DNA of 55,459 nucleotides, from IMG/VR virus record IMGVR_UViG_3300047476_000267, positions 1 to 55,459 of that record, one strand, 5' to 3'. This document shows positions 21,301 to 47,599 of the stretch, piece after piece (within the stretch, counting starts at the first letter, position 1; every line of letters starts with the position of its first letter). The notes beneath the pieces were generated by a model. It saw only the letters and a list, made by a program, of their open reading frames with translations. It was not told the origin of the DNA and did not search any database. This DNA comes from a virus (Duplodnaviria > Caudoviricetes). The translations under genes were made by a program, and so were the position numbers.

Positions 21301-24300
21301 TCAGATGATGGCTGACATCCCAGCGGAGATGCGCCCAGCTGCGGTATTGCTCAAGAAGATGGCATCTCTGAACGCCAACACTACGGCATCCCGTAAGTCT
21401 GCGGTGACAGCTGAGGGCGTGGTCGACTTTATGAATGACTACGGCGGTCAAGTAGCCCAAGAGTATCTACGGGATAACCCAGAGATTCACGAGGCGCTTG
21501 GCGGTGACAAGATGCTGGCGATTGCTGAGGACACCAACGAAGCCCTAGAAGCCGACATTCGCAGATTCACTGGCTACATTCCTATACTTCCGCTTGCCCA
21601 ACAGGAAGAAGTCTATGCTGACCTGATTGATCGCTACAACGAGTTGCTTGAGCGTGAGAACAGCATGGGCACGAATAAGCTCGAAGCCAAGGCAGTAGAC
21701 CTTGATGCTGAAACTCTGTCGATTGAGCCAATCAGCGAAGACAAAGGCGAGGACTCAATCTTCTCTGCACCAGCGTTTATGGAGCGTGTAGACGTCAAAC
21801 GCACTGTTAAGCCATATAGCAGCCAAGAAGTTAATCAGATGATTACTGAGAATCTTGGCGGTAAGACAAATGGCGTTCTTGCTAGAGAGATGATCTCTGA
21901 GTTTGATGAGCGTGAGACCAAGTTCGCTAGAGAAAGACTGGCAGCGCTCAGAGAGAAAGAGACCGATCAAGTCAAGATCGAGACCCAGCAGTCGCAACAG
22001 CGCTTACTGGCTGACAAGATCCGTTCTGTCTTGCAGAATCTCAAGATTGGCATGCCTGTCACCATCAAAGACAAGAACGGCATGTATGTATTCGGTGTCA
22101 TTACCGATATTAAAAACACCAAGCGCACAGTCAATCCAGCCTCTGGCTCCGACTGGAAGATGACTCTGGCTATTGCCAACGGTGATTCCAGAAGCCTGAC
22201 CCTGAACTTCTCGCAGATCGGCACGAACTACACCCTTGAGGAGTCGACTGAGGTTAACTACCTGAACCCAGAGACCCAGCAAGGCGAGTGGACTAAGATC
22301 ATCGACATCTTTGACAAGGGCGCAACAGTACGGCGTGAGAAGCGCTGGATGATTACTGGCAACATCTTGGCTGGCTTTGCCCAGTATCCAGGACAGATCC
22401 TCAGCTACACCAAGAACGATGGCACTACTGGTCAGGGCATCCTATTGCCCCGCCAGTTCAATTTTGAGGAAGAGAAGAAACGGGCTGATGTCCGTCTCAA
22501 GACCCCAGATGACATGCTCAAGTTCCTTGATGAGCTCAACGGCACGATAGCCAGCGATGACAATATCCTACGCATTACCAAGCGTGGCGATACCTACATG
22601 GTCTCTGTGCCGTCTAACAAGCGTTCTGGTGGCGAATACTTCCTAGATGAGAATCTTAAGTCAATCCTAGGCAAGGACTTCTACAAGCGTGGCTCGGATA
22701 TGATTAACTACACCCGCAGCCCACAAGAGTTCAAAGAAGCCATGGACTACTTGATGAAGGAGAAGGAGCAGTTCTTCAAGGCAATTACCCGCCAAGACGA
22801 AGCTCGTAAGATGTTTGGACCCAAAGAGGTTCAAGACATCGCTGGCGTTACCCAAAAGCGTGTGGATACCCGTAAGGATGAGATCCGTGCCGAGCAGATC
22901 AAAGAACAGGCTCGCCTAAGCCGTGCGATTACCGCCAAGCTCAAGAAGGTTATTGAGGGTAATGTAGACCTCAATATCCAGCGTGATCTGACTTATCTCA
23001 AGAAAGCCAAAGAAGATATGAAGGCAGAGCTGGCTAAGACCAAGCCAGCCCGTGTATCGCCACAGTGGATTCGCACCAGAGCATCGGCAGAGAACGCTGC
23101 TGGCAATCTATCTGATGAGGCATACCAAGTTGTAGAGATGCTGGCTAATCGTTTCCCAGGAGTTCTGGATGGACTGAGACTATCTGTCCGCACAACCAAG
23201 GGCGAGGCCACTGGTAACTTTAATCCCATGAATCGGTTGATTACTGTATTCAAGGAAGGCGCTACCCAAGACCGCACCATGCGCCATGAGATTGCTCATT
23301 CGTTAGAGCAGATGATGACCCCAGAGGCTCAGATGGCTGTGGTCGAGGCATGGGGTAATGCTCTATCTAAAGCGATTGAGGACAACACCGACAAGGTATC
23401 TCAGGACTATTTCAATGCCGTGCTGGATTACATCAACAATCCAACCGCTGAGACCCAGAAGAAGGCTACTGATCTGATGCCAGATTACAGCTTCTACCAG
23501 TATCTCAACCCATCGGAATATTGGGCAGTCAACGCTGAGCCATTAATGAAGGCATCGCTAGGCAGCGCATGGCAGCGCTTTACCAAGGCAGTCAGCAAGA
23601 TCCTAGAGGCTATCAAGTCTGTGATTGGCTTAAACAACAAGTATGCTGTGCATCGTGAGTTTGACCGCATCATGTCTGGCAAGCAAGACCGCATGACCCG
23701 TAAGATGTTGGTCGAGTACGTAACCGACAACGCCGATGCCTTGAAGTTCCTCAATAACGTAGAGGACTTTGATAAGCGCTTTGAGGAAGATGGACTAAAC
23801 CACACCCCAGTCAAGCCAAGCCGTAACGTTAAAGACATGCTGCTCGGTGGATTCCGTGGTGCAAAACAGATCTACAACGACACTCTAAACTCGCCTCTCA
23901 TGGCAGCTCAGGCGATGGGTGGCAAGATTGCCCGTGCCGTAACTTATGCCCGTAATAAGAACATCTGGTTTGGTGCTGGTTTGGAGATGGCTGATCTGGC
24001 GATGCAGAAAGCCAAAGGATTAGATGGTTTACTGCGTGATGGAGAGATGCGTGCTGTTGCCTCGATTGCAGTCACCAACGCCTTGCATGCTGGTCACGTA
24101 GCCTCTGAGGTCATTATCCGTGGCGCACTGGCGTTTAACGAGAAGACCCAGATGTTCCAAGCCATTAGACGCCCATTCTCGATGGCTAACGTATTGCTGG
24201 CTAAGCATGACTTGATTGAGCGTGTAGGCTTGCAACGGGCTACTGACATGGTCAACACCTTCTTTGAAGCCAAGCGTTCTAAGAGCATCATGGATGAGTT

Positions 24301-26566
24301 CAAGGCTCGTGAACAGGAGCTGAATGATCTAAACGCTGAGATGCGTGATCCAAGGACTATGCCACAGCGTCAAGCCGCCTTGCTCGATGAGATCCTACAA
24401 GCCGAGAAGGGCTTGCGGATGATTAACATCGCCAAGAAGAAGGTGCGCTTTACCGAAGACCAGATCGACTTCTACGGCAACCTTGAGAAAGACAACAAAG
24501 AGTTGCGCACCATGCTCGATAACTGGACTAAGGTCAACGACAACATGATCGACATGATGTTGTTTAGCAAGATCATTAGCAAGAAGCGTGCAGAGCAGCT
24601 CAAGAAAATCAAGGACTATGTGCCCTGGTATCGCATCAAGGATGACATGGAAGACGTGCATACCGACTCCAAGCTGGGTGGTGTTAAGCGCCTAACCAAT
24701 GTCGGCAAAGAGAAACGCTTTGAGGATACGGTAGTCGTTCAGGACATTGACGATATCGTGGATAACATGCTCCACAACGTAGGCATGATTACTCGTAACT
24801 CCATGCGTAACTACGCCGCCAACCGTGTAGCTCAGGAGTATGCAACCCGCAACAGCCGTGGTCAGATCCGTGTATTCCCAGAAGAGGGTCGCACGCCAGA
24901 TGGCGCAGTACGTACCAACATCCTCGTCAATGGTCGCAGAATCATTGTTGAGATCAAAGATCCGCTAATCGCTGAGGCAGTGTTGGGCATGGAGAACATC
25001 AACATGCCAGCTTTAGAGATGCTCAGCATGCTGGCTAACGGCTTGCGTAGGGGTGTTACCACATGGCCTACCTTCCAGATTCGCCAGTTGTTTATGGATG
25101 CGCCAACCGCAGCCTTGGTCACTGGGTTGAAAGACCCAACCAAAGTCTGGGCTGGCACGTTCCGTGGCTTTATCAAGGCTCTCCAATCGGATGATCCTGT
25201 GGTCGATATGCTCAAGTCCTACGGTATTGGTGGCTATCAGTCTTACACCAGAACCCCAGAGATCGAATACAAGAAGCAGATCGGCTTATTGGAAAAGAAC
25301 AAGTTTGATTCTCTGATGGCTTTCTTGGATAAGGTTGGTGACTCCTCAGACTACGCTCAGCGTATCTCGATCTACAACCGCACCCTGAAAGAGACTGGCG
25401 ATGAGATGCTGGCGATTATGAACGCCAACAATGTGATCGACTTCCTTAAGCGTGGTAGCGCAAGGCACGCCCAGTTCTTGACCAAGACTGTATCGTTTAT
25501 GAACGCCTACGCCCAGCAGCTTGATGTCCTGGTGATGGCTCTTATGGGTAAGCGTATGCTCGGCAAGTCTCGTCAGGCAGCCTTAGCGCAGTTGGCTAAG
25601 ACCGCAGCGACCTTTGGAACTTATGTATTGCTGTATAGCTGGATGGTTGGTGACGATGACGAATACCAGCAGTTGGATGACCAGACCAAAGTCCGCAACA
25701 TCTTTTTATCGAAGAACTGGACTGGCTTGGATCAGAACATCCTACTGCCAATGCACACCTCTGCCAGCTTTATGTTCAAGTCCATCCCTGAGTTGACCTA
25801 TAACTACATCGTCAATAAAGGTACGGACAATGAGATGGATGCCAAGCGCCTACGCACCGCCCTGTCTGAGGCTGCGATGGATTCCTTGCTTGGTCCAAAC
25901 CCAGTGCCTACTGGTGTCAAGCCAGCCATTGAGATCATCCTCAACAAGAACTTCTTTACGGGCAGCACAGTCGTACCCCGTGGCATGGAAGACTTGGATG
26001 CAGCCGAGCAATACACTGCTACGACATCCGAGTTCGGTAAGGTTCTCAGTGCCTTGACTGGATTGCCGTTCACAGACAAGCGGGTATTAAACCCAATCGA
26101 GGCAGATCACTTGGTTCGGGGTATGTTTGGAACCACAGGATCCGCAGTCCAGTGGCTATCTAACCTATTCTCAGAAGACCGCCCAGCACCACGGGCTAAG
26201 GACAATCCACTGTATGGCTCATTCATTACGGCTGATGTACCCCGTGGTCGTGAGGATCTGTTCTATGACTTCAAGGGCATCGTAGATAACCGCTACGAAA
26301 CCTTTATGAAGCTCTTGGAGCGTGGCAAGGATAAACAGGCTGATGAGTACTACGACAAGTACAGCGACCTGATTGCCTCCCGTGATTACGTAGTGGGCAT
26401 GGAAGCTGCGCTACGGGATATCAACCGCCAGATTAGAAACATTGGTGAGATCAAGGACAAGGACTTCACGCCTGAGCAGCGCAGACAGGAGATCACGGAC
26501 TTACAGCGCCAGAAGAACGATATCTTGGATGGCATTATCCAGATGCGTTTAGACGCTGGACTGTAA
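15320..26566 (+). CDS. Giant polyvalent ejection protein (DarB-like): N6-adenine methyltransferase + Strawberry-notch SF2 helicase + zincin + LPD38-like C-terminus
   Basis: YSTPAPLA/EPTAGNG/IANPPF (about 18280-18540); DQTGIGKGR, FDESH, SSATYA, GSTGLSLHA, QMLGRVHRTGQ (about 19600-21280); HEIAH...EYW (about 23285-23525). Confidence 0.85.
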   Translation: MATKPENVNPFAKYVEQSGEEAPPENPFAKYLQPEEPSQLLDPAKMIAAGAIGPTAAIPLGLESSVRNIPRQVVEQQAVTPVEKVGPLTFAEELVRKGPAQLLVNTARAFIKNATGESFEKQQERQKQDEIAVDRAISNLPRVPGLSQLAEAGEKVSGKLRESVSTAGKQAIADSQIEGNLLEAIQNQNIDNLSFGKNPSFMGYALQGSQVLGSLAPIIGTAIMTKGSSKAVGTVGFGMGAGEAVQDAQQYISKLSDEELMANSPYFKKMVEDGVNPAEARKVVTDKAAEYAAQLQGSVSAFGSVITGKLITGQFDKLMTGPVKNRLGRIALGTTAGAAEEGTQEFLEGIAKDLGINKSVIKEIGEESFANFVLGAIGGAGPGAYRGAVAKTKEEAEAAAKKPTREQVDAQMRLALGEEGVPPAVPPAAVTPPITPAPTPAEPAAEPALEEEIVQPTPRAVAPTPMLLQTAGLPPQVADQVQNLESQFQLIEQRKLDPNLTNEEAEIFQERQNLIQQQIAQLIQAPAPEIQAPAIAEAPPIDEELLADIQERGEPIESRMDAEQRLSNGEQIYAFPEQDEGRPTPITSVDQLAAYTPDQMMALPSVAPVAEEVVREPEVAAPPVEEAAPTEAPALTQAEINQQRQAERRAAAEAGTKPLPEEPEAMLKRQKGYEEARAKYAADMDPMFVYKALELADRDLEMREEALPELRKMEEMGLIKIKKGKRKSFYLGQGAKEAGLTNELSFSGYQDVVNYLSAKPKTIVELPKKEEAPAIKVTPNKIFTEDAATKARNRLRSKLNQLNSGIDPEFLIDGVTLSGYHIEKGARTFAAYAKAMIADLGDKVRPYLKSWYMAVKFDPRSAEFSKEMDDEATVDKYKDEETTSIADPDVKFKVAEDISKYFLADGSFKDIVEARKFISNITKQKIEPGTAEAKEADEAIEVGVVLAARKIAARNKPADQIYDDLVDLYNRQPNLSVRSSTSIKEQAYSTPAPLAYVASQLADINKDTTVYEPTAGNGMLLINANPKNVIANELNGTRLEMLKRVLPGAEVVNKNALSFDPTLSDRVIANPPFGAIGEEVTVAGNKTREIDHAIAYKALGRMPVNGRAVLIVGGVLGDSNEKRVDGYRSAQKRNFYFNLYKKYNVVDHFSVAGDMYKKQGAAYPVDVIVIAGKGGESIDLPAANLPKVYSSYEQLKEKLDEASRMVSRGAERPARADIGEAAVGEGEPQAVGRGAVRPSEPAGAERARPERGEPTGVSAARPTPRGQPSGARAEPRAEQPKPTDVSERGRVEGKPVPRGEGEQPAGRRGAEERRPSELGGISVVSGERVKSGLVERRGEEVETEQQATYEPKSQATSVGTLVPRAMRDSIEQSLQKVENEMGNLDEYVADNLGMDLETLREDFSAEQVDALALAIRNAEAGKGFIIGDQTGIGKGRVVAAMIKFAIKNGKIPIFVTEKPNLYSDMIRDLDDIGMTKELALDTNRPKVFITNGGESIPYQLLRKKGDEVEEINLTLKAPKSGKALDGMMEEMRNKDSIGDYKVIFTTYSQLQNVKGKDTERQKFISNFGMDNYMIFDESHNAGGGGETQARTKDQREAAKKGESLSTGRAGFVRNLVRNAFGTFFSSATYAKRPDVMDLYSSTNMMLAVDKPAELAEAIKRGGVPMQQIVATMLTKDGQYIRRERTFAGVAYNTVDTAVDKQTAENMATAMREILSFSRSKDIVLKQMQKQFDKEAKMVSEVGGEKTTVQGANFGSVMHNLIDQMLLSLKAKDSVNHAINRLKAGEKVVMTVSNTMGSFLQSYAEDMGIEVGGKVDLSFADLYVRYLDKQLMITIKSPDGTKKQRKLTPDELGPTLMARYNQIRQQIENSGFGSAPISPIDYMHNELRKAGYKTDEITGRTITLNYATGEPILTSRSANIRQRVNAVRGFNSGDTDVIILNQAGSTGLSLHASNKVKDQRKRHMLIVQPEKNIDTHMQMLGRVHRTGQVVTPSYSQMMADIPAEMRPAAVLLKKMASLNANTTASRKSAVTAEGVVDFMNDYGGQVAQEYLRDNPEIHEALGGDKMLAIAEDTNEALEADIRRFTGYIPILPLAQQEEVYADLIDRYNELLERENSMGTNKLEAKAVDLDAETLSIEPISEDKGEDSIFSAPAFMERVDVKRTVKPYSSQEVNQMITENLGGKTNGVLAREMISEFDERETKFARERLAALREKETDQVKIETQQSQQRLLADKIRSVLQNLKIGMPVTIKDKNGMYVFGVITDIKNTKRTVNPASGSDWKMTLAIANGDSRSLTLNFSQIGTNYTLEESTEVNYLNPETQQGEWTKIIDIFDKGATVRREKRWMITGNILAGFAQYPGQILSYTKNDGTTGQGILLPRQFNFEEEKKRADVRLKTPDDMLKFLDELNGTIASDDNILRITKRGDTYMVSVPSNKRSGGEYFLDENLKSILGKDFYKRGSDMINYTRSPQEFKEAMDYLMKEKEQFFKAITRQDEARKMFGPKEVQDIAGVTQKRVDTRKDEIRAEQIKEQARLSRAITAKLKKVIEGNVDLNIQRDLTYLKKAKEDMKAELAKTKPARVSPQWIRTRASAENAAGNLSDEAYQVVEMLANRFPGVLDGLRLSVRTTKGEATGNFNPMNRLITVFKEGATQDRTMRHEIAHSLEQMMTPEAQMAVVEAWGNALSKAIEDNTDKVSQDYFNAVLDYINNPTAETQKKATDLMPDYSFYQYLNPSEYWAVNAEPLMKASLGSAWQRFTKAVSKILEAIKSVIGLNNKYAVHREFDRIMSGKQDRMTRKMLVEYVTDNADALKFLNNVEDFDKRFEEDGLNHTPVKPSRNVKDMLLGGFRGAKQIYNDTLNSPLMAAQAMGGKIARAVTYARNKNIWFGAGLEMADLAMQKAKGLDGLLRDGEMRAVASIAVTNALHAGHVASEVIIRGALAFNEKTQMFQAIRRPFSMANVLLAKHDLIERVGLQRATDMVNTFFEAKRSKSIMDEFKAREQELNDLNAEMRDPRTMPQRQAALLDEILQAEKGLRMINIAKKKVRFTEDQIDFYGNLEKDNKELRTMLDNWTKVNDNMIDMMLFSKIISKKRAEQLKKIKDYVPWYRIKDDMEDVHTDSKLGGVKRLTNVGKEKRFEDTVVVQDIDDIVDNMLHNVGMITRNSMRNYAANRVAQEYATRNSRGQIRVFPEEGRTPDGAVRTNILVNGRRIIVEIKDPLIAEAVLGMENINMPALEMLSMLANGLRRGVTTWPTFQIRQLFMDAPTAALVTGLKDPTKVWAGTFRGFIKALQSDDPVVDMLKSYGIGGYQSYTRTPEIEYKKQIGLLEKNKFDSLMAFLDKVGDSSDYAQRISIYNRTLKETGDEMLAIMNANNVIDFLKRGSARHAQFLTKTVSFMNAYAQQLDVLVMALMGKRMLGKSRQAALAQLAKTAATFGTYVLLYSWMVGDDDEYQQLDDQTKVRNIFLSKNWTGLDQNILLPMHTSASFMFKSIPELTYNYIVNKGTDNEMDAKRLRTALSEAAMDSLLGPNPVPTGVKPAIEIILNKNFFTGSTVVPRGMEDLDAAEQYTATTSEFGKVLSALTGLPFTDKRVLNPIEADHLVRGMFGTTGSAVQWLSNLFSEDRPAPRAKDNPLYGSFITADVPRGREDLFYDFKGIVDNRYETFMKLLERGKDKQADEYYDKYSDLIASRDYVVGMEAALRDINRQIRNIGEIKDKDFTPEQRRQEITDLQRQKNDILDGIIQMRLDAGL

Positions 26567-27054: not shown

Positions 27055-27083
27055 TTGACATAGGATAAACTATAAGCCACAAT
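27055..27083 (+). promoter_or_regulatory. Sigma70-type promoter of the rightward middle operon
   Basis: TTGACA-17 bp-CACAAT; the -35 overlaps short ATAGG/CCTAT palindromes. Confidence 0.65.
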
Positions 27084-27112
27084 CAAGTCTAGTGTAATTG
27101 CTAGGAGAAAAA

Positions 27113-27340
27113 ATGAAAACTGTTCCATACACCACCAAGACTGGTATTCAGATTGGTTGCCGATACAACGAATCCCCAAAACCCATGCCTATCGATGATG
27201 AGGACATGCTCTATATCCAAAGCCTGTTTATTCATTCACCAGAGTGGCATCGTCAGCGTAATGCTGAGCGCCTTACTGTGATTGTGTGCACTGCCTTTGT
27301 GGTTGCTATCTGCACTGCTTTCTTGATGGCAAGCAAATGA
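27113..27340 (+). CDS. Hypothetical protein with C-terminal TM
   Basis: TGCTAGGAGA RBS before ATG 27113; PYTTKTGIQIG motif. Confidence 0.65.
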   Translation: MKTVPYTTKTGIQIGCRYNESPKPMPIDDEDMLYIQSLFIHSPEWHRQRNAERLTVIVCTAFVVAICTAFLMASK

Positions 27341-35439: not shown

Positions 35440-35611
35440 CACCCGAATGGAAGAAGAGTTCAACCAGTGGGCTATGGATAACATAGAGCCATGGCCTCAT
35501 CCCCAAAAGATTCTCCAGAATTATTGGATCGTCTGGCAAGCAGCGTGGAATCGGGCATACAATAGATCTTCAAGTGTGAGGATTGAAGATGAAGACGAAG
35601 GAAGATGTTAA
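35417..35611 (+). CDS. Hypothetical protein
   Basis: EEFNQW...WQAAW motif common in small phage proteins. Confidence 0.5.
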   Translation: MKTESNISTRMEEEFNQWAMDNIEPWPHPQKILQNYWIVWQAAWNRAYNRSSSVRIEDEDEGRC

Positions 35612-35774
35612 GAAACCCAAGGGGCCACAAGCAGAACTTACCCATGACGAGATTGCAAAAGAGCTAGGAATTACGAGGGCTGCGGTATCCATGATCGAGA
35701 AAAGCGCCTTGGCAAAGATTAAACGAGCTCTGAGAGCTAGATACAACATTCATCAATCTGATGATCTTTTATGA
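35583..35774 (+). CDS. Sigma70 region 4-like HTH protein
   Basis: LTHDEIAKELGITRAAVSMIEKSALAKIK. Confidence 0.75.
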   Translation: MKMKTKEDVKKPKGPQAELTHDEIAKELGITRAAVSMIEKSALAKIKRALRARYNIHQSDDLL

Positions 35775-36214
35775 TCTTGGAAAAAGGTTTAAATCGTAAA
35801 GAAAACTGGCAAATCCAAGAAGACATGATGAATCAGTCCAAGGCAAGGGCTGATCTAATGCAACTGTTAAATGTGGATATTGTTACCCAAGACCCTATGA
35901 GCATATGGGATTGGGAGTTCTTTCGAGGCAATCGTCTGCTGGCTATTGGGGAATACCGCAGAAGATTTAATAACTTTGGCACATTCCCAGACTTCCAGTT
36001 TAGCCAGAAGAAGTTTCAAACCATGATGGCAGAAGGTCAGCGGCATGGCATCCCAGCCTTAATGTTTGTGGAGTTTGATGATCTTTACCTTTATTTTGAA
36101 ATACAAGGCAACCCAGAAGTCAAGACCATGCGCAGAAACCACGAGGTCAGGACTGAGCCATGTGTAGTTATCCCAAATGAGCAGTTTAAGTATGTATATC
36201 ATCTAGATCTATGA
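35771..36214 (+). CDS. Hypothetical protein, possibly restriction-endonuclease fold
   Basis: D...EYRRR spacing resembles PD-(D/E)XK. Confidence 0.45.
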   Translation: MILEKGLNRKENWQIQEDMMNQSKARADLMQLLNVDIVTQDPMSIWDWEFFRGNRLLAIGEYRRRFNNFGTFPDFQFSQKKFQTMMAEGQRHGIPALMFVEFDDLYLYFEIQGNPEVKTMRRNHEVRTEPCVVIPNEQFKYVYHLDL

Positions 36215-36504
36215 CTATCTATCGAAACAAGAAGCTCTTAGAAGCTGTCAGGGTTAGCCCCTGTCAGAACTGTGGCAAAGTGGATGGAACAGTCTGCGCT
36301 GCGCACTCCAACCAGCTACGGGATGGCAAGGGCAGAGCCCTAAAAGCGCACGATTACCGCATCGCAGCATTATGTTTTCGCTGTCATTCCATGCTGGATC
36401 AGGGCTACCAGATGAGCAAGGAAGAACGGGTAGAAATGTGGGAAAGCGCCCATCGGAAGACGATTGGCTGGCTTTTTGAGAATGGCATTATTGATACAAG
36501 ATAG
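36211..36504 (+). CDS. Zn-binding HNH-like nuclease (DUF1364/DUF968-like)
   Basis: CQNCG...AAHSN...KAHD...LCFRCH. Confidence 0.7.
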   Translation: MTIYRNKKLLEAVRVSPCQNCGKVDGTVCAAHSNQLRDGKGRALKAHDYRIAALCFRCHSMLDQGYQMSKEERVEMWESAHRKTIGWLFENGIIDTR

Positions 36505-36545
36505 ACGCCTATAGACACCTATAGAGCACCATGGAACACAATATA

Positions 36546-36575
36546 TTGACGTTTTGTAGAACCATGTGCTATATT
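36546..36575 (+). promoter_or_regulatory. Sigma70-type promoter of the small RNA
   Basis: TTGACG-18 bp-TATATT with extended TGn. Confidence 0.6.
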
Positions 36576-36581
36576 TAGTGC

Positions 36582-36699
36582 ACCAGCCCACACTGGTATC
36601 GCACGATAAATCTCCTAGCAGAGACTTGTGCAATGCAAGCCCAACGGTGACACACTCACCTCAAACCCCCAGGCTCACACTCCTGGGGGTTTTTCTTTT
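36582..36699 (+). ncRNA. Candidate trans-acting antisense (anti-RBS) small RNA
   Basis: Bounded by promoter and terminator; four hairpins; AAUCUCCUAGCAG and UCACACUCCU are complementary to repeated phage RBSs. Confidence 0.65.
36663..36699 (+). terminator. Intrinsic terminator
   Basis: AAACCCCCAGG/CCTGGGGGTTT stem followed by TTCTTTT. Confidence 0.85.
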
Positions 36700-36712
36700 G
36701 TGCAAAAAATTG

Positions 36713-36741
36713 TTGCAAATTTATTTCTGTTGGTTTAATCT
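36713..36741 (+). promoter_or_regulatory. Sigma70-type promoter of the replication operon leader
   Basis: TTGCAA-17 bp-TAATCT with AT-rich upstream sequence. Confidence 0.55.
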
Positions 36742-36808
36742 AATCGTGCTAGGAGAAATATCGTGTGGATGAATGCGTAACTGCGTTCGTCTTCACAATA
36801 TTCCTCTC

Positions 36809-37000
36809 AGCTACACCGCATAGGTCGGATTCTTTAACGACAGCTATTCGGGAAGATGCTCCTACTGTGGGATAAGACTTGAAACAGGAGCAGAGATGGC
36901 GAAGCCAGAGTCTCTAGTCGAACGTCTGGCGGGTGCAGTGGCTCCAGAAAGCAACTGTTGAAGGCATCTAGGATAGGCTAGGTGCGTTCACCAAAAAGCA
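36809..37000 (+). ncRNA. Candidate multi-stem structured RNA
   Basis: Nested stems TGCTCCT/AGGAGCA, GAGA-TGGC/GCCA-TCTC, CAGT/ACTG, GCATCTAG/CTAGGTGC; no long ORF. Confidence 0.5.
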
Positions 37001-37050
37001 ACTCACCTTACTAATACTAACTACTACTACTAACTAGATAGGGGGTGGGG

Positions 37051-37203
37051 GTGTACGAGATACGAGATGAGATGGGCGAACTGATGCGGATAGTCGGGCG
37101 CCTTGAGGAAGCAAAGAGTTTAGTCGCTGTGCGTGAGGGCTGGTCGTACAAGCGGGTGAAGCAACATAAACCAGCCTATGTGTTTGAAGAAGCCCCATTT
37201 TAA
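37051..37203 (+). CDS. Hypothetical protein (50 aa, not in ORF track)
   Basis: GTG start after G-rich RBS; MYEIRDEMGELMRIV...FEEAPF. Confidence 0.55.
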   Translation: MYEIRDEMGELMRIVGRLEEAKSLVAVREGWSYKRVKQHKPAYVFEEAPF

Positions 37204-37213
37204 GGAGAATGAA

Positions 37214-37612
37214 ATGAAGTTAATTGCGGAGTTTAGTAGCATCGCTGACATGGCCAACTTTTCTGCCTTTGTCAATCAGCGTTTGGAAGAAGATGCACGA
37301 GTTCGGGAACTGAACAACCTACGAGGACAACTGGATTTAGCCAAAGAGCAACTCAATCGAGCCTATGCCCGTCTGCGTTTCAAAGATGACAAAGACAATG
37401 AGAAGACCTATGCGATCCCGCTTGATACATTGCCATTAAAAGTCCGCACCTACAACTGCTTGGTCGCTGAAGGATGCCAAACTGTTGGTGATGTCATGGC
37501 GCTTTTTAATGAAAATCAACTGCGTAAAATAACTAACTTTGGCAACGGCAGTTTTAGCAATCTAAAGCGAGTCTTTGCGGAAGAACTAAAAATAACCCTT
37601 GATCGGAAATAA
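37214..37612 (+). CDS. Protein with RNA polymerase alpha-CTD-like domain
   Basis: LDTLPLKVRTYNCL..EG..TVGDV.....QLRKITNFGNGS resembles alpha-CTD; TAAGGAG RBS. Confidence 0.75.
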   Translation: MKLIAEFSSIADMANFSAFVNQRLEEDARVRELNNLRGQLDLAKEQLNRAYARLRFKDDKDNEKTYAIPLDTLPLKVRTYNCLVAEGCQTVGDVMALFNENQLRKITNFGNGSFSNLKRVFAEELKITLDRK

Positions 37613-37614
37613 AC

Positions 37615-38469
37615 ATGAAGAAGCTAAACATACTCAACATCCGTACTGATGGGGGCACACAGCCCCGCCTAGAACTTGACCAAGCCATGGTCAAGGACTA
37701 TGCCGAGAAGATGCGGGATGGGATTAAATTCCCACCAATCATCGTCTTCCATGACGGATCGGAATACTGGCTGGCGGATGGATTTCACCGCTACTTTGCA
37801 ACCAAGTCCAATGCCATCACCACCATTGAAGCCGAAGTCAAACAAGGAACGCTGCGAGATGCCATGCTTTTTGCGTGGAGTGCCAACAACCGCCATGGCA
37901 AACCGCCTAAGCCCGAAGATATACGAGCCATCATTCGCAAGATGTTTGAGGATGAGGAATGGGGCAAATGGTCAAACGTGCAGATCGCCAAGCAGTTAGA
38001 AGTATCCATATCCACAGTCCAGCGTTTGCGTGTGGCGTATCAGGAAGAGCACAAAGAGCAAAAGAAGACCACCGTTACCTATGTGGATAAGCATGGCAAC
38101 ACCACAACCATGGAAACTTCTAGCATCAAGAAGAAGACCAAAAAGACAGACCGCCCAACCACCAAGCCTGACCTGACCACCGAGCCATCCGAGGTGGAGC
38201 AGAAGGTCAAAGAACTGGCTGATACAGTCAATACCCTTGCCGAAGAGAACACCCTACTAAGGGACAAGATTGCACTGGGGCAGTGGGATGCGTCTGAGAT
38301 CGAGAAGATTGATGCCGAGGAGACCATCAAGGATCTGCGCAATCAGATCAAGGTGCTTGAGATTGAGAACAAGTCCTTGCGTGAGAGCCGAGACATCTAT
38401 CAGAACGAGAACGCTGAGTTAATCCGCACCGTCAAATCACTGAAAGCCAAGTTAAAGAAGTTTGAATAA
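37615..38469 (+). CDS. ParB-like N-terminal domain protein with HTH and coiled coil
   Basis: GTQPR, FPPIIVF, LADGFHRY, SNVQIAKQLEVSISTV. Confidence 0.8.
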   Translation: MKKLNILNIRTDGGTQPRLELDQAMVKDYAEKMRDGIKFPPIIVFHDGSEYWLADGFHRYFATKSNAITTIEAEVKQGTLRDAMLFAWSANNRHGKPPKPEDIRAIIRKMFEDEEWGKWSNVQIAKQLEVSISTVQRLRVAYQEEHKEQKKTTVTYVDKHGNTTTMETSSIKKKTKKTDRPTTKPDLTTEPSEVEQKVKELADTVNTLAEENTLLRDKIALGQWDASEIEKIDAEETIKDLRNQIKVLEIENKSLRESRDIYQNENAELIRTVKSLKAKLKKFE

Positions 38470-40643: not shown

Positions 40644-40940
40644 ATGAACGCATACGAATTAGCAGATATTGTAGATAGATGGGCATATAAAGAAAGTGCG
40701 GAGTATTTGACTGATGCCGCCAAAATGCTTCGCCAACAAGCAGACCGCATACGCAATTTAGAAAAAACACTTGGCTTTAAAAATAGTGGATATGAAACTA
40801 TTAATTTAACACCTCAAATAAAAGAGTTAAGTGATGAGGAAATAATTGAAATAGGTAATGCAGTTGTAAACCTTATTGATTCCAATGAAGGATGGATTGA
40901 ATTTGCTAGAGCAATACTAAAGAAAGCGAGTGAGAAATGA
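40644..40940 (+). CDS. MNAYELA-family hypothetical protein
   Basis: Same modules; ends KKASEK. Confidence 0.65.
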   Translation: MNAYELADIVDRWAYKESAEYLTDAAKMLRQQADRIRNLEKTLGFKNSGYETINLTPQIKELSDEEIIEIGNAVVNLIDSNEGWIEFARAILKKASEK

Positions 40941-41224
40941 GTGGCGGTTCTTATGATTATTTTTATTCTAAAGTCAATGATATTGCTGATGAAATCCGTT
41001 TAATTAACCCTGAAAGAGAGGCATTTGTTAAACATCTTCGTAAAGTTGCCAAAGCACTGCATGACATTGAATGGGTAGATAGTTGCGATTATAGCAAGGA
41101 AGGTGAAATTGAAGCCATTATGAAATGTATTACACCTAAGGATGTTTTAGAAATTGCCGTTGAAAAAGCAATAAAAGCCTCTGATGATTTGAATAGGGCT
41201 ATAAAGAAAGCGATTGAGAAATGA
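40937..41224 (+). CDS. Hypothetical protein (MSGGSYDY family)
   Basis: LHDIEWVDSCDY motif; ends KKAIEK. Confidence 0.65.
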   Translation: MSGGSYDYFYSKVNDIADEIRLINPEREAFVKHLRKVAKALHDIEWVDSCDYSKEGEIEAIMKCITPKDVLEIAVEKAIKASDDLNRAIKKAIEK

Positions 41225-41478
41225 ACGCATACGAATTAGCAAATAAGATGGAACAATTAGCTGGTCATTTTCACAATGAAGCAATTAATATGCTTCGCCA
41301 ACAAGCAGACGAGATTGGCTCACTCAAAGCAAGACTAAAACAATTAGCAGAAGAAATAGGATGCTACAAGATTGAATTGGAATTGCACAAAGCCATGATT
41401 CAAGACTTAGAAAAGGGTCTGGAGTCATCCTTAGCATTGAACAAGGCTCAGGCAGAGCGGAAAGCGAGTGAGAAGTGA
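41221..41478 (+). CDS. MNAYELA-family hypothetical protein
   Basis: Same N-terminus; ends RKASEK. Confidence 0.65.
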   Translation: MNAYELANKMEQLAGHFHNEAINMLRQQADEIGSLKARLKQLAEEIGCYKIELELHKAMIQDLEKGLESSLALNKAQAERKASEK

Positions 41479-41885
41479 AGTTTGACCCCAAGAAAGAACC
41501 AATGTGGTTAAGTGACGAGATTGGTATCCGATTGTTTAATTGGTGCTTGTGTATTGATGAGAAAGCCTATGTCAAAGCCTTATCCCAGTTAACTAAAGAG
41601 GGTAAACATTTGACCCCTAATTGGCCTGATGATGGTGCGAGGTGCCAATTTGTAATGTGTAATGGAGAGGCAACAGATTGCGTTGTAATGCTTGTTGAAA
41701 AGAAAGACCCGATTGAAAACGCAGTTTTGTTGGTGCATGAAGCTGTGCATATTTGGCAGATGTTTTGTCAAACCATAGGGGAAAGAAACCCAAGCGATGA
41801 GTTCATGGCATACACCATACAAAACATTACCCATCGGCTATATCACGCTTATCAGATGGCGCTAGAACACAGGGAGAAGAAATGA
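41475..41885 (+). CDS. Zincin-like (HExxH) protein
   Basis: LVHEAVH...DEFMAY. Confidence 0.6.
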   Translation: MKFDPKKEPMWLSDEIGIRLFNWCLCIDEKAYVKALSQLTKEGKHLTPNWPDDGARCQFVMCNGEATDCVVMLVEKKDPIENAVLLVHEAVHIWQMFCQTIGERNPSDEFMAYTIQNITHRLYHAYQMALEHREKK

Positions 41886-42061
41886 ACGCATACGAATTAG
41901 CTGATTATTTAGAAAAAGATTTTCAAATTCAAGAAGCAGTCATTGACATGCTAAAAGAACAAGCAGACCTTATAAAACAAGCATCTCAATTTATTCAAGA
42001 GCAAGGATTAGAAAGACAGTGGATTGTTTGGTCAACGCTAAAGAAAGCGAGTGATAAGTGA
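41882..42061 (+). CDS. MNAYELA-family hypothetical protein (59 aa, not in ORF track)
   Basis: MNAYELADYLE...LKKASDK; overlaps at both ends. Confidence 0.65.
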   Translation: MNAYELADYLEKDFQIQEAVIDMLKEQADLIKQASQFIQEQGLERQWIVWSTLKKASDK

Positions 42062-44707: not shown

Positions 44708-45187
44708 TCACCAACTGGCTTGATAGTAAAACTCATACTGATCTTCGGGCAGTGATTCCAGAGCATTGGTAATGCCCTCAACAGTCCTTTTCAGATCATC
44801 CCAATACCATTCATCTTTTTCGTATGTTCCGAAAAATGGGCCTTGCATTGGCTCTAAATCCTCATCCCTTTCGGCATCAGGATTCTCAAGAATGTCTTTG
44901 CACAAGTCCCGCAACTCCACCAGTTTCTCTCTCGGCACATAGGATTGCTGACACTCATCCACCCCGCCCTGACAGTTTTCCACGAACCACCCATGAATAG
45001 CGTTTGCTTTTCGCCAATACATAGCATCCACCGATACTTCCTTGACCACAAGGCTCGATCCCGCAAAGCGTTTTTCAGGATTACCATCAACCCCAATCAT
45101 TTCATTGACCTTTTGAGATATTTCCTTGTCCTCGTCTCGGTGAGACGAAAGATATCTCTTGGCAGTTAAATACATATCTAATCCCAT
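44708..45187 (-). CDS. Hypothetical protein (MGLDMYL family)
   Basis: YWRKANAIHGWF, FFG..E.DEWY, YYQASW. Confidence 0.7.
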   Translation of the reverse strand: MGLDMYLTAKRYLSSHRDEDKEISQKVNEMIGVDGNPEKRFAGSSLVVKEVSVDAMYWRKANAIHGWFVENCQGGVDECQQSYVPREKLVELRDLCKDILENPDAERDEDLEPMQGPFFGTYEKDEWYWDDLKRTVEGITNALESLPEDQYEFYYQASW

Positions 45188-45213
45188 AACATTCTCCTAG
45201 CAGTTAAAAAGTT

Positions 45214-45529: not shown

Positions 45530-45607
45530 CTAGTTAAATACAACGATTGCAGACCACACCACATATGCAACATACGCTAAACAAATAGCCAGTATCCAGT
45601 CCCACAT
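45530..45607 (-). CDS. Single-TM peptide (25 aa)
   Basis: MWDWILAICLAYVAYVVWSAIVVFN; TAATG coupling. Confidence 0.4.
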   Translation of the reverse strand: MWDWILAICLAYVAYVVWSAIVVFN

Positions 45608-46095
45608 TAGAAAATCCTTCCGTTTTCATCAAACTCATAATTGTTGATTTCCATCATTTCCTCGACTGCTTCATCTGAGTAGTGATATTCAATGTCCCGA
45701 TTGATAGCGATCAGTGCAGACTCCAATGCCTGATGAAAGGCATACATGGCATCACCAGTTTTCTTAAATTCCTCAAAGAATGACTGGATCATGGTGCAGT
45801 CCAACCACATACCTGATTTGGGCAAATACCCAGTTTTGGCTAGTTTCTTGGCATCTTCCAAGGTGAACCCTCTGAAATGATGGTTTTCAACATCAGTCTT
45901 TAGAAATTCACCCCGCCCACCAATCGACCAGTCTTTCAAAGTAATCCCAAAATGCTCACAGAAGGCTTTGATTGAATCAATGTTCTCCTGATGCCAAGGG
46001 TAGTCCATGCCATTGATATACCAGTCTTTAGCCCTTTGCTTTGCTTTACCATCTAACTCAGAGTATTTGTAGATTGATAATTCAGCAACTCTCAT
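45607..46095 (-). CDS. Hypothetical protein
   Basis: YKYSEL..KAKQRAKDW...SDEAVEEM..N.YEFDENG pattern of mobile-element proteins. Confidence 0.65.
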   Translation of the reverse strand: MRVAELSIYKYSELDGKAKQRAKDWYINGMDYPWHQENIDSIKAFCEHFGITLKDWSIGGRGEFLKTDVENHHFRGFTLEDAKKLAKTGYLPKSGMWLDCTMIQSFFEEFKKTGDAMYAFHQALESALIAINRDIEYHYSDEAVEEMMEINNYEFDENGRIF

Positions 46096-46115
46096 TTCTA
46101 TCTCCTAGCAGTTTT

Positions 46116-46709: not shown

Positions 46710-47084
46710 TCAATACTCCGAAGTGAGCATCAAAACATTGTCGGTCAGGAAGAACTTGTATTCACCAACTGGGCAGTCGGTGTATTCAATGATCTTCTTT
46801 GCCAACAGTTCACAATCACCATCTTCAACTACGATCATTGCATTGTTGTCATCCTGATTACTTCCAACGATCAGCGTAATGCTGATGAATGGCTCTTTCT
46901 TGAGCAGTGGAAAATACTCAGTCGCAACGATATCCAAGAACCAGTAAGCACCATTACCCGCATTCTCAGCAAAGTATTGAACCCCATCAGTATGGTGCAG
47001 ACCTTTTGCAAACATGGGATTGGTTTGATAGTAATTCGCAGTCCCAATAAATTGGGATAAATCTAAAGTGGTAGTCGAATCCAA
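46710..47084 (-). CDS. DUF6876-like protein
   Basis: LSQFIGTANYY, TDGVQY.AE...AYWFLD, YTDCP, LMLTSEY; TTG start after CTAGGAG. Confidence 0.65.
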   Translation of the reverse strand: MDSTTTLDLSQFIGTANYYQTNPMFAKGLHHTDGVQYFAENAGNGAYWFLDIVATEYFPLLKKEPFISITLIVGSNQDDNNAMIVVEDGDCELLAKKIIEYTDCPVGEYKFFLTDNVLMLTSEY

Positions 47085-47103
47085 TTTAATCTCCTAGCAG
47101 TTA

Positions 47104-47163
47104 TGATTATCGGGATTGATAATCCGTAAACCCACGCAGTGCATGGGCTTACAGGTATCACTC
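47104..47163 (-). ncRNA. Intergenic two-hairpin RNA motif, copy B
   Basis: GAGUGAUACCU-hairpin-GGAUUAUC/GAUAAUC; compensatory changes relative to copy A. Confidence 0.55.
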
Positions 47164-47547
47164 CTCTACTTCTTCCTCAAGAACAGTATCAACAATGTAA
47201 TCACCAAACTTTAGAACTCCATCATCATTGGTGCATAAGGTGGCAGTCTCAAACACAACGAGGGTAGAATCATTCCAGTCGGTGGTAGCGTAAGCAACAG
47301 GCACAAGACCAATCAAACCCGCATCAACTGGATATGTATTACCCTTGTTATCGGGATAGCAACCATCACCCCATTTAGTGCCAAAGGCAAGAACTTCAAA
47401 GTCTCCAACCTTGCCAACAGGCTCATTGAAATAATTGCATGACTGGAGTAAAGCACCCCAGTCAGCGTCAGGCACTACATAACAAGGATCGCCAAGGATG
47501 TAAGCACCTTTTGGCACAACAACAGATTTAGAACTCAATGTAAGCAT
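47158..47547 (-). CDS. Hypothetical protein
   Basis: YILGDPCYV, TKWGDG.Y, PVDAGLIGLVP motifs; first gene of the leftward block. Confidence 0.7.
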   Translation of the reverse strand: MLTLSSKSVVVPKGAYILGDPCYVVPDADWGALLQSCNYFNEPVGKVGDFEVLAFGTKWGDGCYPDNKGNTYPVDAGLIGLVPVAYATTDWNDSTLVVFETATLCTNDDGVLKFGDYIVDTVLEEEVEE

Positions 47548-47599
47548 TTCTATCTCCTAGCAGTTTGGTAGTCGAATTAGGTGTTTAGCACCTACCGAC

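Follow-up and report, generated by a model that had tools for sequence, protein, structure and literature searches.

Several RNAs that pair with the leader of a replication transcript have been described in plasmids. In CopA/CopT of R1 and RNA I/RNA II of ColE1 a constitutive, structured RNA starts pairing with the leader through a loop. Plasmid copy-number antisense RNAs combine a conserved fold with a variable pairing sequence, which sets specificity groups, and their binding refolds or exposes the leader; they are transcribed from the strand opposite the target, so that complementarity is automatic. RsaE and RoxS of Firmicutes are multi-target small RNAs which mask Shine-Dalgarno (SD) sequences with C-rich loops. 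The c4 RNA of phages is cut out of a longer transcript, and uses two loops. The subject of this work is a predicted small RNA of a virus of the Caudoviricetes, encoded on the plus strand of the IMG/VR virus record IMGVR_UViG_3300047476_000267; the whole record, 55,459 bp long and rated 88% complete, is the window to which all positions refer. The closest analogues of this RNA are P1 c4 and P4 CI RNA. In the parts of a 2025 review dealing with c4, the loops of the P1/P7 RNA act on a site around the ribosome-binding sequence of the ant mRNA, and the interaction underlies heteroimmunity (PMC12197685). In the account of P4 in PMC4825925, CI RNA is made by processing in the lysogen and pairs with seqA and seqC, and premature termination keeps the replication genes unexpressed. 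Few phage small RNAs are known; as listed in Table 1 of the review, they come mostly from temperate coliphages and mostly have a single phage gene, or genes of the host, as targets, and none of the 23 distinct phage-derived RNAs of that table is described there as acting on a ribosome-binding site (RBS) cassette shared by phage genes (PMC12197685).

A preliminary description of the locus had proposed a stand-alone RNA, antisense to an RBS motif of several phage genes and acting on them as a master switch. By co-variation, the main co-evolving partner of the small RNA is instead the leader of the adjacent replication operon, at a site (36746-36768) which that description had not recognized as the main target. 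The best explanation as a whole, in which we place moderate confidence, is that a plus-strand RNA of ~116 nt acts on this leader, transcribed from a putative promoter called P2, and that the RBS cassettes provide a second interaction.

The small RNA unit and its family

The unit is bounded by a promoter, P1, and an intrinsic terminator (Table 1). In the predicted fold the segment 36580-36699 forms four hairpins, with an energy of -40.6 kcal/mol (z = -4.7) that none of 200 shuffles reaches. The TTGACG-18-TATATT promoter, the U-tailed terminator, the four hairpins and the CUAGCA sequence in a loop had all been reported in the preliminary description, and were recovered by scan and fold. In relatives the -35 and the TGnTAyATT -10 of P1 are retained (by eye) despite differing upstream sequence.

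Relatives were gathered in six ways, through a neighbouring protein, three exact strings from the RNA unit, a degenerate P2 pattern in metagenomes, the pattern of the Betaproteobacteria-1 RNA found downstream, a cassette-plus-gene string, and an orthologous protein; 14 metagenome loci were chosen by the P2 pattern. A blastn search with 36200-37700 over 50,697 phage records returned a single weak match, confined to the HNH gene. Each of the distinct RNAs first collected adopts on its own the four-hairpin fold with CUAGCA in the loop (19/19). The covariance model R2 finds 33 copies, 25 of them distinct and all with this fold, in 33 loci of related phage and metagenome contigs. Its structure was written by hand; an earlier model, R1, held only terminator pairs, as MAFFT misaligned the variable hairpins. 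In the R2 alignment, fitted to this structure, pairing extends to 93.7% of the cells, and 14 of the 24 pairs are changed on both sides. As controls, shuffles gave 4.6 +/- 1.5 compensatory pairs (0 of 500 reached 14), and sliding of the partners gave 1-5. A promoter and an intrinsic terminator, both retained in relatives, which bound a short non-coding unit with a structure supported in this way, are features of trans-acting base-pairing small RNAs. The small RNA is very probably real. Rfam holds no family for it: cmscan of the whole window at gathering thresholds returned only the neighbouring RF02932, and on 36450-37100, with E up to 10, the eight matches were RF02932 and seven at chance level, mostly on the terminator, none of them C4.

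Variation within the element is uneven. The 5' arm of hairpin 2 has the lowest mean pairwise identity, 0.63 vs 0.81-0.90 for hairpin 1, the 3' part and P2. Next to it lies an invariant core, CCTAGCAG, which is present also in loci L071, L072 and L083. The single-stranded GCAAGCCC between hairpins 2 and 3 was considered as a second seed; its complement has two matches in the window, one of them itself, vs 2.43 expected by chance.

A search for public runs yielded 24, one of them on record as RNA; all were available as assembled contigs, a form unable to show a transcript. Of four runs compared with the locus, the metatranscriptome X22 covered only the coding flanks 36300-36365 and 37209-37300, and X20, X21 and X23, which carry an RNA-Seq label, are probably DNA. 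One X20 contig of 114 nt corresponds to 36582-36694, the predicted RNA ends; neighbouring contigs overlap it, contig ends in such graphs follow strain branch points, and it was not used as evidence. We infer transcription of the small RNA from its sequence signals and from the comparison of relatives.

Predicted pairing with the replication-operon leader

For the 5' arm and loop of hairpin 2 (36601-36621) a partner site is found on the same strand, past the terminator, and CACGATAAATCTCCTAGCA (36602-36620) complements 36747-36765 in 17 of 19 positions. When both strands of the whole window were scanned for duplexes, this site ranked on top after the trivial self-antisense, at -32.2 kcal/mol vs -25.8 for the next. 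Arm and site change together in relatives. GTTCTC occurs with GAGAAC, ATTTTCTCCAT with ATGGAGAAAAT, ACATGTCC with GGACATGT, and in the L004 and L041 types a C to U change in the loop is paired with a G to A change in the site. The 33 loci supply 23 unique pairs and 17 unique arms. Cognate partners pair at -31.2 kcal/mol on average vs -23.8 +/- 0.7 for permuted ones (0 of 10000 permutations), and the permutation gave again 0/10000 with one representative for each of the 17 arms. Variable arm and target have diversified jointly into at least 17 specificity variants, in a manner resembling that of plasmid antisense control RNAs and of the c4 RNAs of P1 and P7. The plus-strand RNA reading pairs better than its complement in 22 of the 23 unique pairs, and 38 of 510 pairs are G-U. 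Taken together, the retention of P1 and terminator, the compensatory changes in 14/24 pairs and the better pairing of the plus strand strongly indicate a stand-alone plus-strand RNA. Whether seed and motif change together in relatives had been named earlier as a check for the RBS motif at large; joint change is seen at 36746-36768 and, as far as can be told by eye, not in the flanks of the RBS cassettes. Among the complementary sites, 36747 is the sole target with direct co-evolution.

Between terminator and target lies the putative promoter P2 (Table 1). Its hexamers and their 17-nt spacing are retained, with a differing spacer, in L047-L050, L071, L072 and L083, loci found without using the P2 region. 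Since hexamers and spacing are conserved despite the different spacers, TTGCAA-17-TAATCT is taken as a promoter with a start near 36746, and the target would be the very 5' end of its transcript. The leader so defined is ~300 nt long and structured. It opens with a conserved hairpin and continues into the Betaproteobacteria-1 RNA and further conserved structure, and the first open reading frame (ORF) follows at 37045. Genes past the leader encode a protein resembling the C-terminal domain of RNA polymerase alpha, a ParB-like protein, a helicase and a primase. A terminator scan found no intrinsic terminator in 36700-37045. The 5' arm of the leader hairpin is the target itself; the 3' arm (...UUCCUCUCAGC) is similar to the small RNA arm, so that both compete for one partner. 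Folded alone, the leader over its initial 90 nt (36746-36835), mostly the hairpin, has an energy of -33.1 kcal/mol. In cofolding, the RNA is predicted to open the hairpin, and the complex of RNA and leader reaches -82.4 vs -73.6 kcal/mol for the separate molecules, a gain of -8.8 kcal/mol, and in the complete relative G001 the values are -79.2 vs -73.6. In the preliminary description 36747 was the RBS of the first gene after a promoter, and one such target among six. Complementarity to the RNA is indeed there, but the site is the 5' arm of a leader hairpin, no conserved gene follows it, and it stands apart from the other five as the only one with direct co-evolution.

Several observations weigh against a role of the RNA on the leader. 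P2 is weak by consensus (its -10 matches 3/6), and is absent from the output of the consensus scan. A conserved ORF after 36747 was not found, by eye, among the haplotypes of the relatives, and the window has a 5-codon frame only. Pairing is not uniformly specific: among the 23 partners the cognate one ranks 9 in L035, 11 in L039, where the downstream sequence differs, 6 in L072, 5 in L050, and 4 in L029 and L038. Permutation tests are inflated by related sequences, and the 14 metagenome loci were selected by the P2 pattern. Lastly, the alignment behind the count of compensatory pairs was fitted to the structure under test, which favours that count.

The L035 locus (positions 635-853 of a metagenome contig) combines an RNA arm of the L004 type with a leader target of the L007 type, and its predicted pairing is down to -24.6 kcal/mol. 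Natural recombination or chimeric assembly would account for the combination.

RBS cassettes and alternative explanations

The motif TGCTAGGAGA occurs in the window in seven exact copies vs 0.09 +/- 0.32 expected (dinucleotide shuffles; 0 of 100 reach 7), at 27099 and 36747 on the plus strand, and at 36611, 45193, 46101, 47090 and 47553 on the minus strand. CTGCTAGGAG is found five times vs 0.10 expected. Coordinates and match lengths reported earlier (13, 12, 12, 11, 10 and 10 nt) agree with the printed flanks. The statement that the other full copies face a start codon is correct for five of them, which sit in the sense orientation 5-6 nt ahead of a start codon and precede ORFs of 75-162 aa; 36747 is followed in the window by a 5-codon frame only, and by no frame conserved among relatives (by eye). 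The cassette is found at 5 of 63 listed gene starts, those of four leftward genes and of the first gene after the promoter at 27055-27083.

The loop core CCUAGCAG does not vary (most variants have CUCCUAGCAG), and it matches the CTGCTAGGAG cassette of these five genes; CCTAGCAG is unchanged in 23/23 distinct sequences while the adjoining arm is the most variable part of the RNA. In relatives with enough sequence the cassette, (A)ACTGCTAGGAG, stands ahead of 3-5 leftward genes and of the first rightward gene, sometimes of different genes, and CTGCTAGGAG is retained in all close relatives; a protein search found the cassette at 45193..45203 identical in 13 of 14 close orthologue loci. In the G005 contig an ATG occupies the position of the TTG start of gene 46710-47084. 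In the L021 group the complementarity of the RNA has moved to TTAACTGCTAGG, again within the cassette consensus. A cofold scan of all 63 gene starts, in which the opening cost of both molecules was charged, gave net gains of -21.6, -16.9, -16.7, -12.9 and -12.1 kcal/mol for the cassette genes, which rank 1-4 and tie for 5-6; the 58 non-cassette starts average -6.1, the best reaching -12.1. Cassette and RNA co-occur in all 8 loci of sufficient length, as well as in G162 and G164, which are whole contigs, and both are missing from eight loci with distant orthologues (38-43% identity). Three cassette fragments of 13-16 kb and five short loci, which had no RNA match, end before the RNA position and are uninformative in this respect. 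Relatives which keep the RBS motif and lack the antisense copy, named earlier as a finding that would speak against the proposal, were seen in no informative contig.

The hypothesis that the same RNA represses the five cassette RBSs is credible but unproven, and in our judgement falls a little short of an even balance; a multi-RBS master switch is plausible as an extension of the leader-targeting role. Against it stand the lack of co-variation, looked for by eye, between cassette flanks and RNA arm (the bases after GGAG are mostly AT whatever the arm), the fact that the last G of the core doubles as the closing base of the loop, and the overlap of the RBS sites (-23.7 to -25.8 kcal/mol by simple duplex energy) with background (-25.2, -24.8, -24.6). 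In addition, co-occurrence is confounded by relatedness.

The same facts are expected if the RNA regulates the P2 leader only, and the cassette match is a by-product, the 5' arm of the leader descending from a cassette, with little or no effect on cassette genes. Loop structure and nearby target alone could keep the core. We regard this alternative, the most probable of those considered, as doubtful. In six loci (L047, L048, L050, L049, L071 and L072) the nearby target is GGGCTAGG, and the last two bases of the core are left unpaired yet kept (...AGCAG); in L048 and L050, long enough to be checked, the leftward genes still carry CTGCTAGGAG and so match the core. Moreover, the three largest cassette gains exceed those of every non-cassette gene and of the leader itself.

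Less likely is the opposite view, close to the original proposal, by which the RNA is chiefly a global repressor of CTGCTAGGAG RBSs and 36747 one more such site. The contiguous complementarity of 10-13 nt at five real gene starts, the invariant core, the top ranking of the cassette genes among the 63 and the co-occurrence of cassettes with the RNA all fit it. Yet an extended, co-varying complementarity of 17-26 pairs is found at 36747 only, where no conserved ORF follows and the site lies inside a conserved hairpin, and cassette flanks do not track the arm. In the L004 type, the loop has changed with the nearby target, leaving a G-U against the dispersed cassettes.

The pairing might also take place only within one molecule, the arm folding onto 36746-36768 in P1 read-through transcripts, and the terminated short RNA would then be functionless. 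Partners on the same strand, 126 nt apart, are compatible with such an arrangement, and co-variation cannot separate cis from trans. We judge it slightly less probable still than a global repressor: the terminator, a strong one, is conserved and carries compensatory changes, and is transcribed before the target, so that pairing cannot control it; a conserved promoter-like element separates the partners; and the RNA's own promoter is well kept in every relative.

A DNA-level explanation, in which the complementary stretches form an inverted repeat recognized by an invertase or a dimeric DNA-binding protein, is very improbable. A 17/19 inverted repeat does surround a 126-bp segment with a promoter-like element, and the ParB-like protein weakly matches a DNA invertase PHROG (8.9e-05). 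However, the arms contain internal loops of unequal size, e.g. 3 vs 7 nt, the third co-varying partner, the 3' arm of the leader, fits an RNA switch rather than a DNA site, and the segment is inverted in none of the 33 copies. The 38 G-U pairs form on the plus strand only, and the better fit of that strand in 22 of 23 pairs disfavours both a DNA-level repeat and a minus-strand RNA. Most improbable of all is that the minus-strand motif is a true RBS, an option raised earlier and compatible with a GTG at the usual distance and a 9-codon frame behind it (36602-36576, minus strand), given that the frame lies inside hairpin 1, where changes compensate RNA pairing (AU to GC, CG to UA), that peptide and length are not kept among relatives (L031 and L021 types differ or stop early, by eye), and that a scan of 35500-38000 found no minus-strand promoter to serve it, the sole match on that strand, 35539-35510, reading away.

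A sequence of the form (A/G)ATTCGACTACCA is found just upstream of the first leftward cassette and, as first codons, in the next cassette gene (47564-47580 and 47062-47079, minus strand), and TCATTCGACTAA stands before cassettes in relatives. The pattern suggests that cassette junctions were duplicated or recombined.

Table 1. Predicted features of the small RNA locus and of the cassette genes (positions in the window; cofold gains in kcal/mol)
Feature	Position	Strand	Remarks
Promoter P1 of the small RNA	36546..36575	+	TTGACG-18-TATATT, TG ahead of the -10; consensus scan
Small RNA, ~116-118 nt	36582..36699	+	start predicted from the -10; end at the U tract
Hairpin 1	36582..36597	+	2/5 pairs compensatory (AU to GC, CG to UA)
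Hairpin 2	36601..36631	+	variable 5' arm, apical loop CUAGCA; outer stem 4/4 pairs compensatory
Invariant core CCTAGCAG	36614..36621	+	complements CTGCTAGG; 23/23 distinct sequences, alignment A4
Single-stranded GCAAGCCC, between hairpins 2 and 3	36635..36642	+	invariant 23/23
Hairpin 3	36646..36660	+	3/5 pairs compensatory, 100% paired
Intrinsic terminator	36663..36699	+	11-pair, 7-GC stem 36663-36692, then T run; 4/8 pairs compensatory
Putative promoter P2	36713..36741	+	TTGCAA-17-TAATCT, between terminator and target
Co-evolving target, 5' end of P2 transcript with RBS-like TGCTAGGAGA	36746..36768	+	best non-self duplex site
5'-terminal leader hairpin of P2 transcript, ~69 nt	36746..36814	+	RNAalifold, 11 sequences: 23 pairs, 8 compensatory
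Betaproteobacteria-1 RNA (RF02932)	36814..36934	+	86.8 bits vs gathering 49.4; model 1-120 of 120
RBS cassette	27099..27108	+	gene 27113-27340, first after promoter TTGACA-17-CACAAT (27055-27083); net cofold gain -12.9
RBS cassette	45193..45203	-	gene 44708-45187; net cofold gain -16.9
RBS cassette	46100..46111	-	gene 45607-46095; net cofold gain -21.6, rank 1/63
RBS cassette	47088..47100	-	gene 46710-47084, TTG start; net cofold gain -16.7
RBS cassette	47552..47563	-	gene 47158-47547, first leftward gene; net cofold gain -12.1, ties best non-cassette gene

Proposed role, genomic surroundings and comparison with described systems

If the RNA acts on the P2 leader as we favour, host RNA polymerase would make it, with its four hairpins, from the strong, host-type P1 from the start of infection, and transcripts would end at the intrinsic terminator. 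Alone, the 5' end of the leader would be held in its long terminal hairpin. The 5' arm and loop of hairpin 2 would bind in trans the first ~22 nt of P2 transcripts; because the RNA arm imitates the 3' arm of the leader hairpin and competes with it, binding would displace the latter and open the hairpin, giving an intermolecular duplex of ~20 bp. Lower expression of the replication operon would plausibly result, either by RNase III cutting the duplex or by leader refolding. Repression is the favoured sign; activation, or a leader serving as RNA sponge, are the alternatives. In the second interaction the core CCUAGCAG would act on CTGCTAGGAG of the four leftward genes and of the first gene of the 27-kb rightward unit. 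We infer action in trans, as well as direction and size of the effect.

The joint diversification of arm and target on a constant scaffold suggests competition between co-infecting relatives, since antisense systems defining specificity groups show diversification of this kind. A tentative extension, for which we would not claim more than a lesser chance, is a two-address RNA, in which an unchanging anti-RBS loop is joined to a rapidly diversifying private arm, and apparently virulent freshwater phages are sorted into specificity groups. If true, the loop would silence a cassette-marked regulon as genome copies multiply and the RNA builds up with them, the groups would resemble those of plasmid incompatibility or P1/P7 heteroimmunity and matter in co-infection, and the leader with its Betaproteobacteria-1 RNA would be a controlled switch or an RNA sponge. 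Apart from this, the locus provides an RNA family defined by comparison alone in uncultured freshwater phages, with a target found by co-variation and not by prediction only, and a visible pattern of specificity diversification; it also suggests, as a testable hypothesis, that the phage genes sharing an RBS cassette form a regulon controlled by RNA.

The Betaproteobacteria-1 RNA directly 3' of the regulated hairpin is an orphan Rfam family, and its site in the leader of a phage replication operon gives it a first functional context. In bacteria, a pattern scan of genome contigs led to two loci, and, in a sample of 151 genomes of the order to which one Burkholderiaceae metagenome-assembled genome belongs, RF02932 is present in 2. 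In this metagenome-assembled genome (L045, 1501-1621) the RNA lies beside a divergent gene of the helix-turn-helix type. Neither L045 nor L046 has a match to model R1, which holds terminator pairs only, so that the small RNA is not an obligatory companion of RF02932. Betaproteobacteria-1 may be an early-leader element of phages or prophages. A full-text literature search for the name returned only unrelated papers. The name is also absent from the main text of PMC5737381, the paper from which we take the family to originate; its supplements may describe the context of the motif.

Public runs containing DNA of the window are labelled freshwater or lake metagenomes, and the presence of RF02932 hints at a betaproteobacterial host. 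The window encodes a RusA-like resolvase, an exonuclease, an Erf-like annealing protein, an HNH endonuclease, the ParB-like protein, helicase and primase mentioned above, the small and large terminase subunits, a portal protein, and a polyvalent helicase-type protein. The last is a single ORF of 3,748 aa (15320-26566, plus strand) with an LPD38 domain and helicase domains of the Strawberry-notch type, and belongs to the large polyvalent proteins that some virions carry. The small RNA locus is flanked by a 63-aa protein (35583-35774, plus strand), which matches only sigma-70 region 4 (PF04545, 5.2e-09), and a 144-aa protein (37178-37612, plus strand) with the C-terminal domain of RNA polymerase alpha (PF03118, 2.9e-12); the two may redirect host transcription. 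In the region 40644-42060 (plus strand) a near-identical junction of ~18 nt, AAAGAAAGCGAGTGAGAA, precedes each of five consecutive starts (40644, 40937, 41221, 41475 and 42058), four of which open successive small ORFs of 85-136 aa. These genes look like a tandem paralogue array sharing a C-terminal end or an RBS junction. Distant phages with an orthologue of gene 44708-45187 (38% identity) carry a repeat unrelated to the small RNA, TACTGGG(G), with ~55 copies per 20 kb on both strands, several as close inverted pairs (L091, 1-20480; also L089 and L092).

The phage is apparently virulent. PF00589 (tyrosine integrase) and PF00717 (S24 peptidase repressor), the only integrase and repressor kinds searched, were each found in 0 of 3 records, namely the window (88% complete), G001 (100%) and G162 (99%). 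In this the locus is unlike both the temperate immunity of c4 and P4 CI.

P1 C4 and P4 CI had been put forward as precedents in the preliminary description, and the choice was sound as to geometry and co-variation, though no C4 match was obtained and a single downstream site is present. As in c4 of P1/P7, in the description of it given by the review, the small RNA lies upstream of its target on the same strand, loop sequences complement a site including a ribosome-binding sequence, and RNA and target differ together between related phages, which sets specificity or heteroimmunity (PMC12197685). The same order of RNA and target on one strand is found here, with a co-varying complementarity (-31.2 vs -23.8 kcal/mol, 0/10000). 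Differences concern the covariance model of C4, to which 36450-37100 gave no match at E up to 10, the promoter and terminator that the present RNA has of its own, and the mode of pairing, through one arm plus loop. In addition, c4 acts on the icd RBS ahead of the antirepressor, whereas the target described here has no conserved translated gene, and the genes downstream are replication genes.

The likeness to P4 CI, in the passages of PMC4825925 that cover it, consists in an untranslated RNA of a leader region with a complementary site downstream on the same strand, and in replication genes behind the target. The present RNA would end at its own terminator, with no need of processing, the terminator scan found no terminator-like site in the leader, and there is one downstream site instead of seqA and seqC, the duplex scan of the window having found no site upstream of the RNA in its unit, and as complementary sites only the downstream one and the RBS cassettes.

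A conserved fold with a variable pairing sequence, aimed at the leader of a replication transcript, is shared with CopA/CopT and RNA I/RNA II. Unlike the plasmid antisense RNAs, RNA and target are separate sequences of the same strand, which must co-evolve, and the carrier is a phage that looks virulent. With RsaE and RoxS the RNA shares an unpaired, CU-rich loop (CUCCUAGCAG) whose sequence complements GGAG in several mRNAs; the regulon proposed here would consist of the phage's own genes, marked by an extended cassette of 10-13 nt and not by the SD sequence alone.

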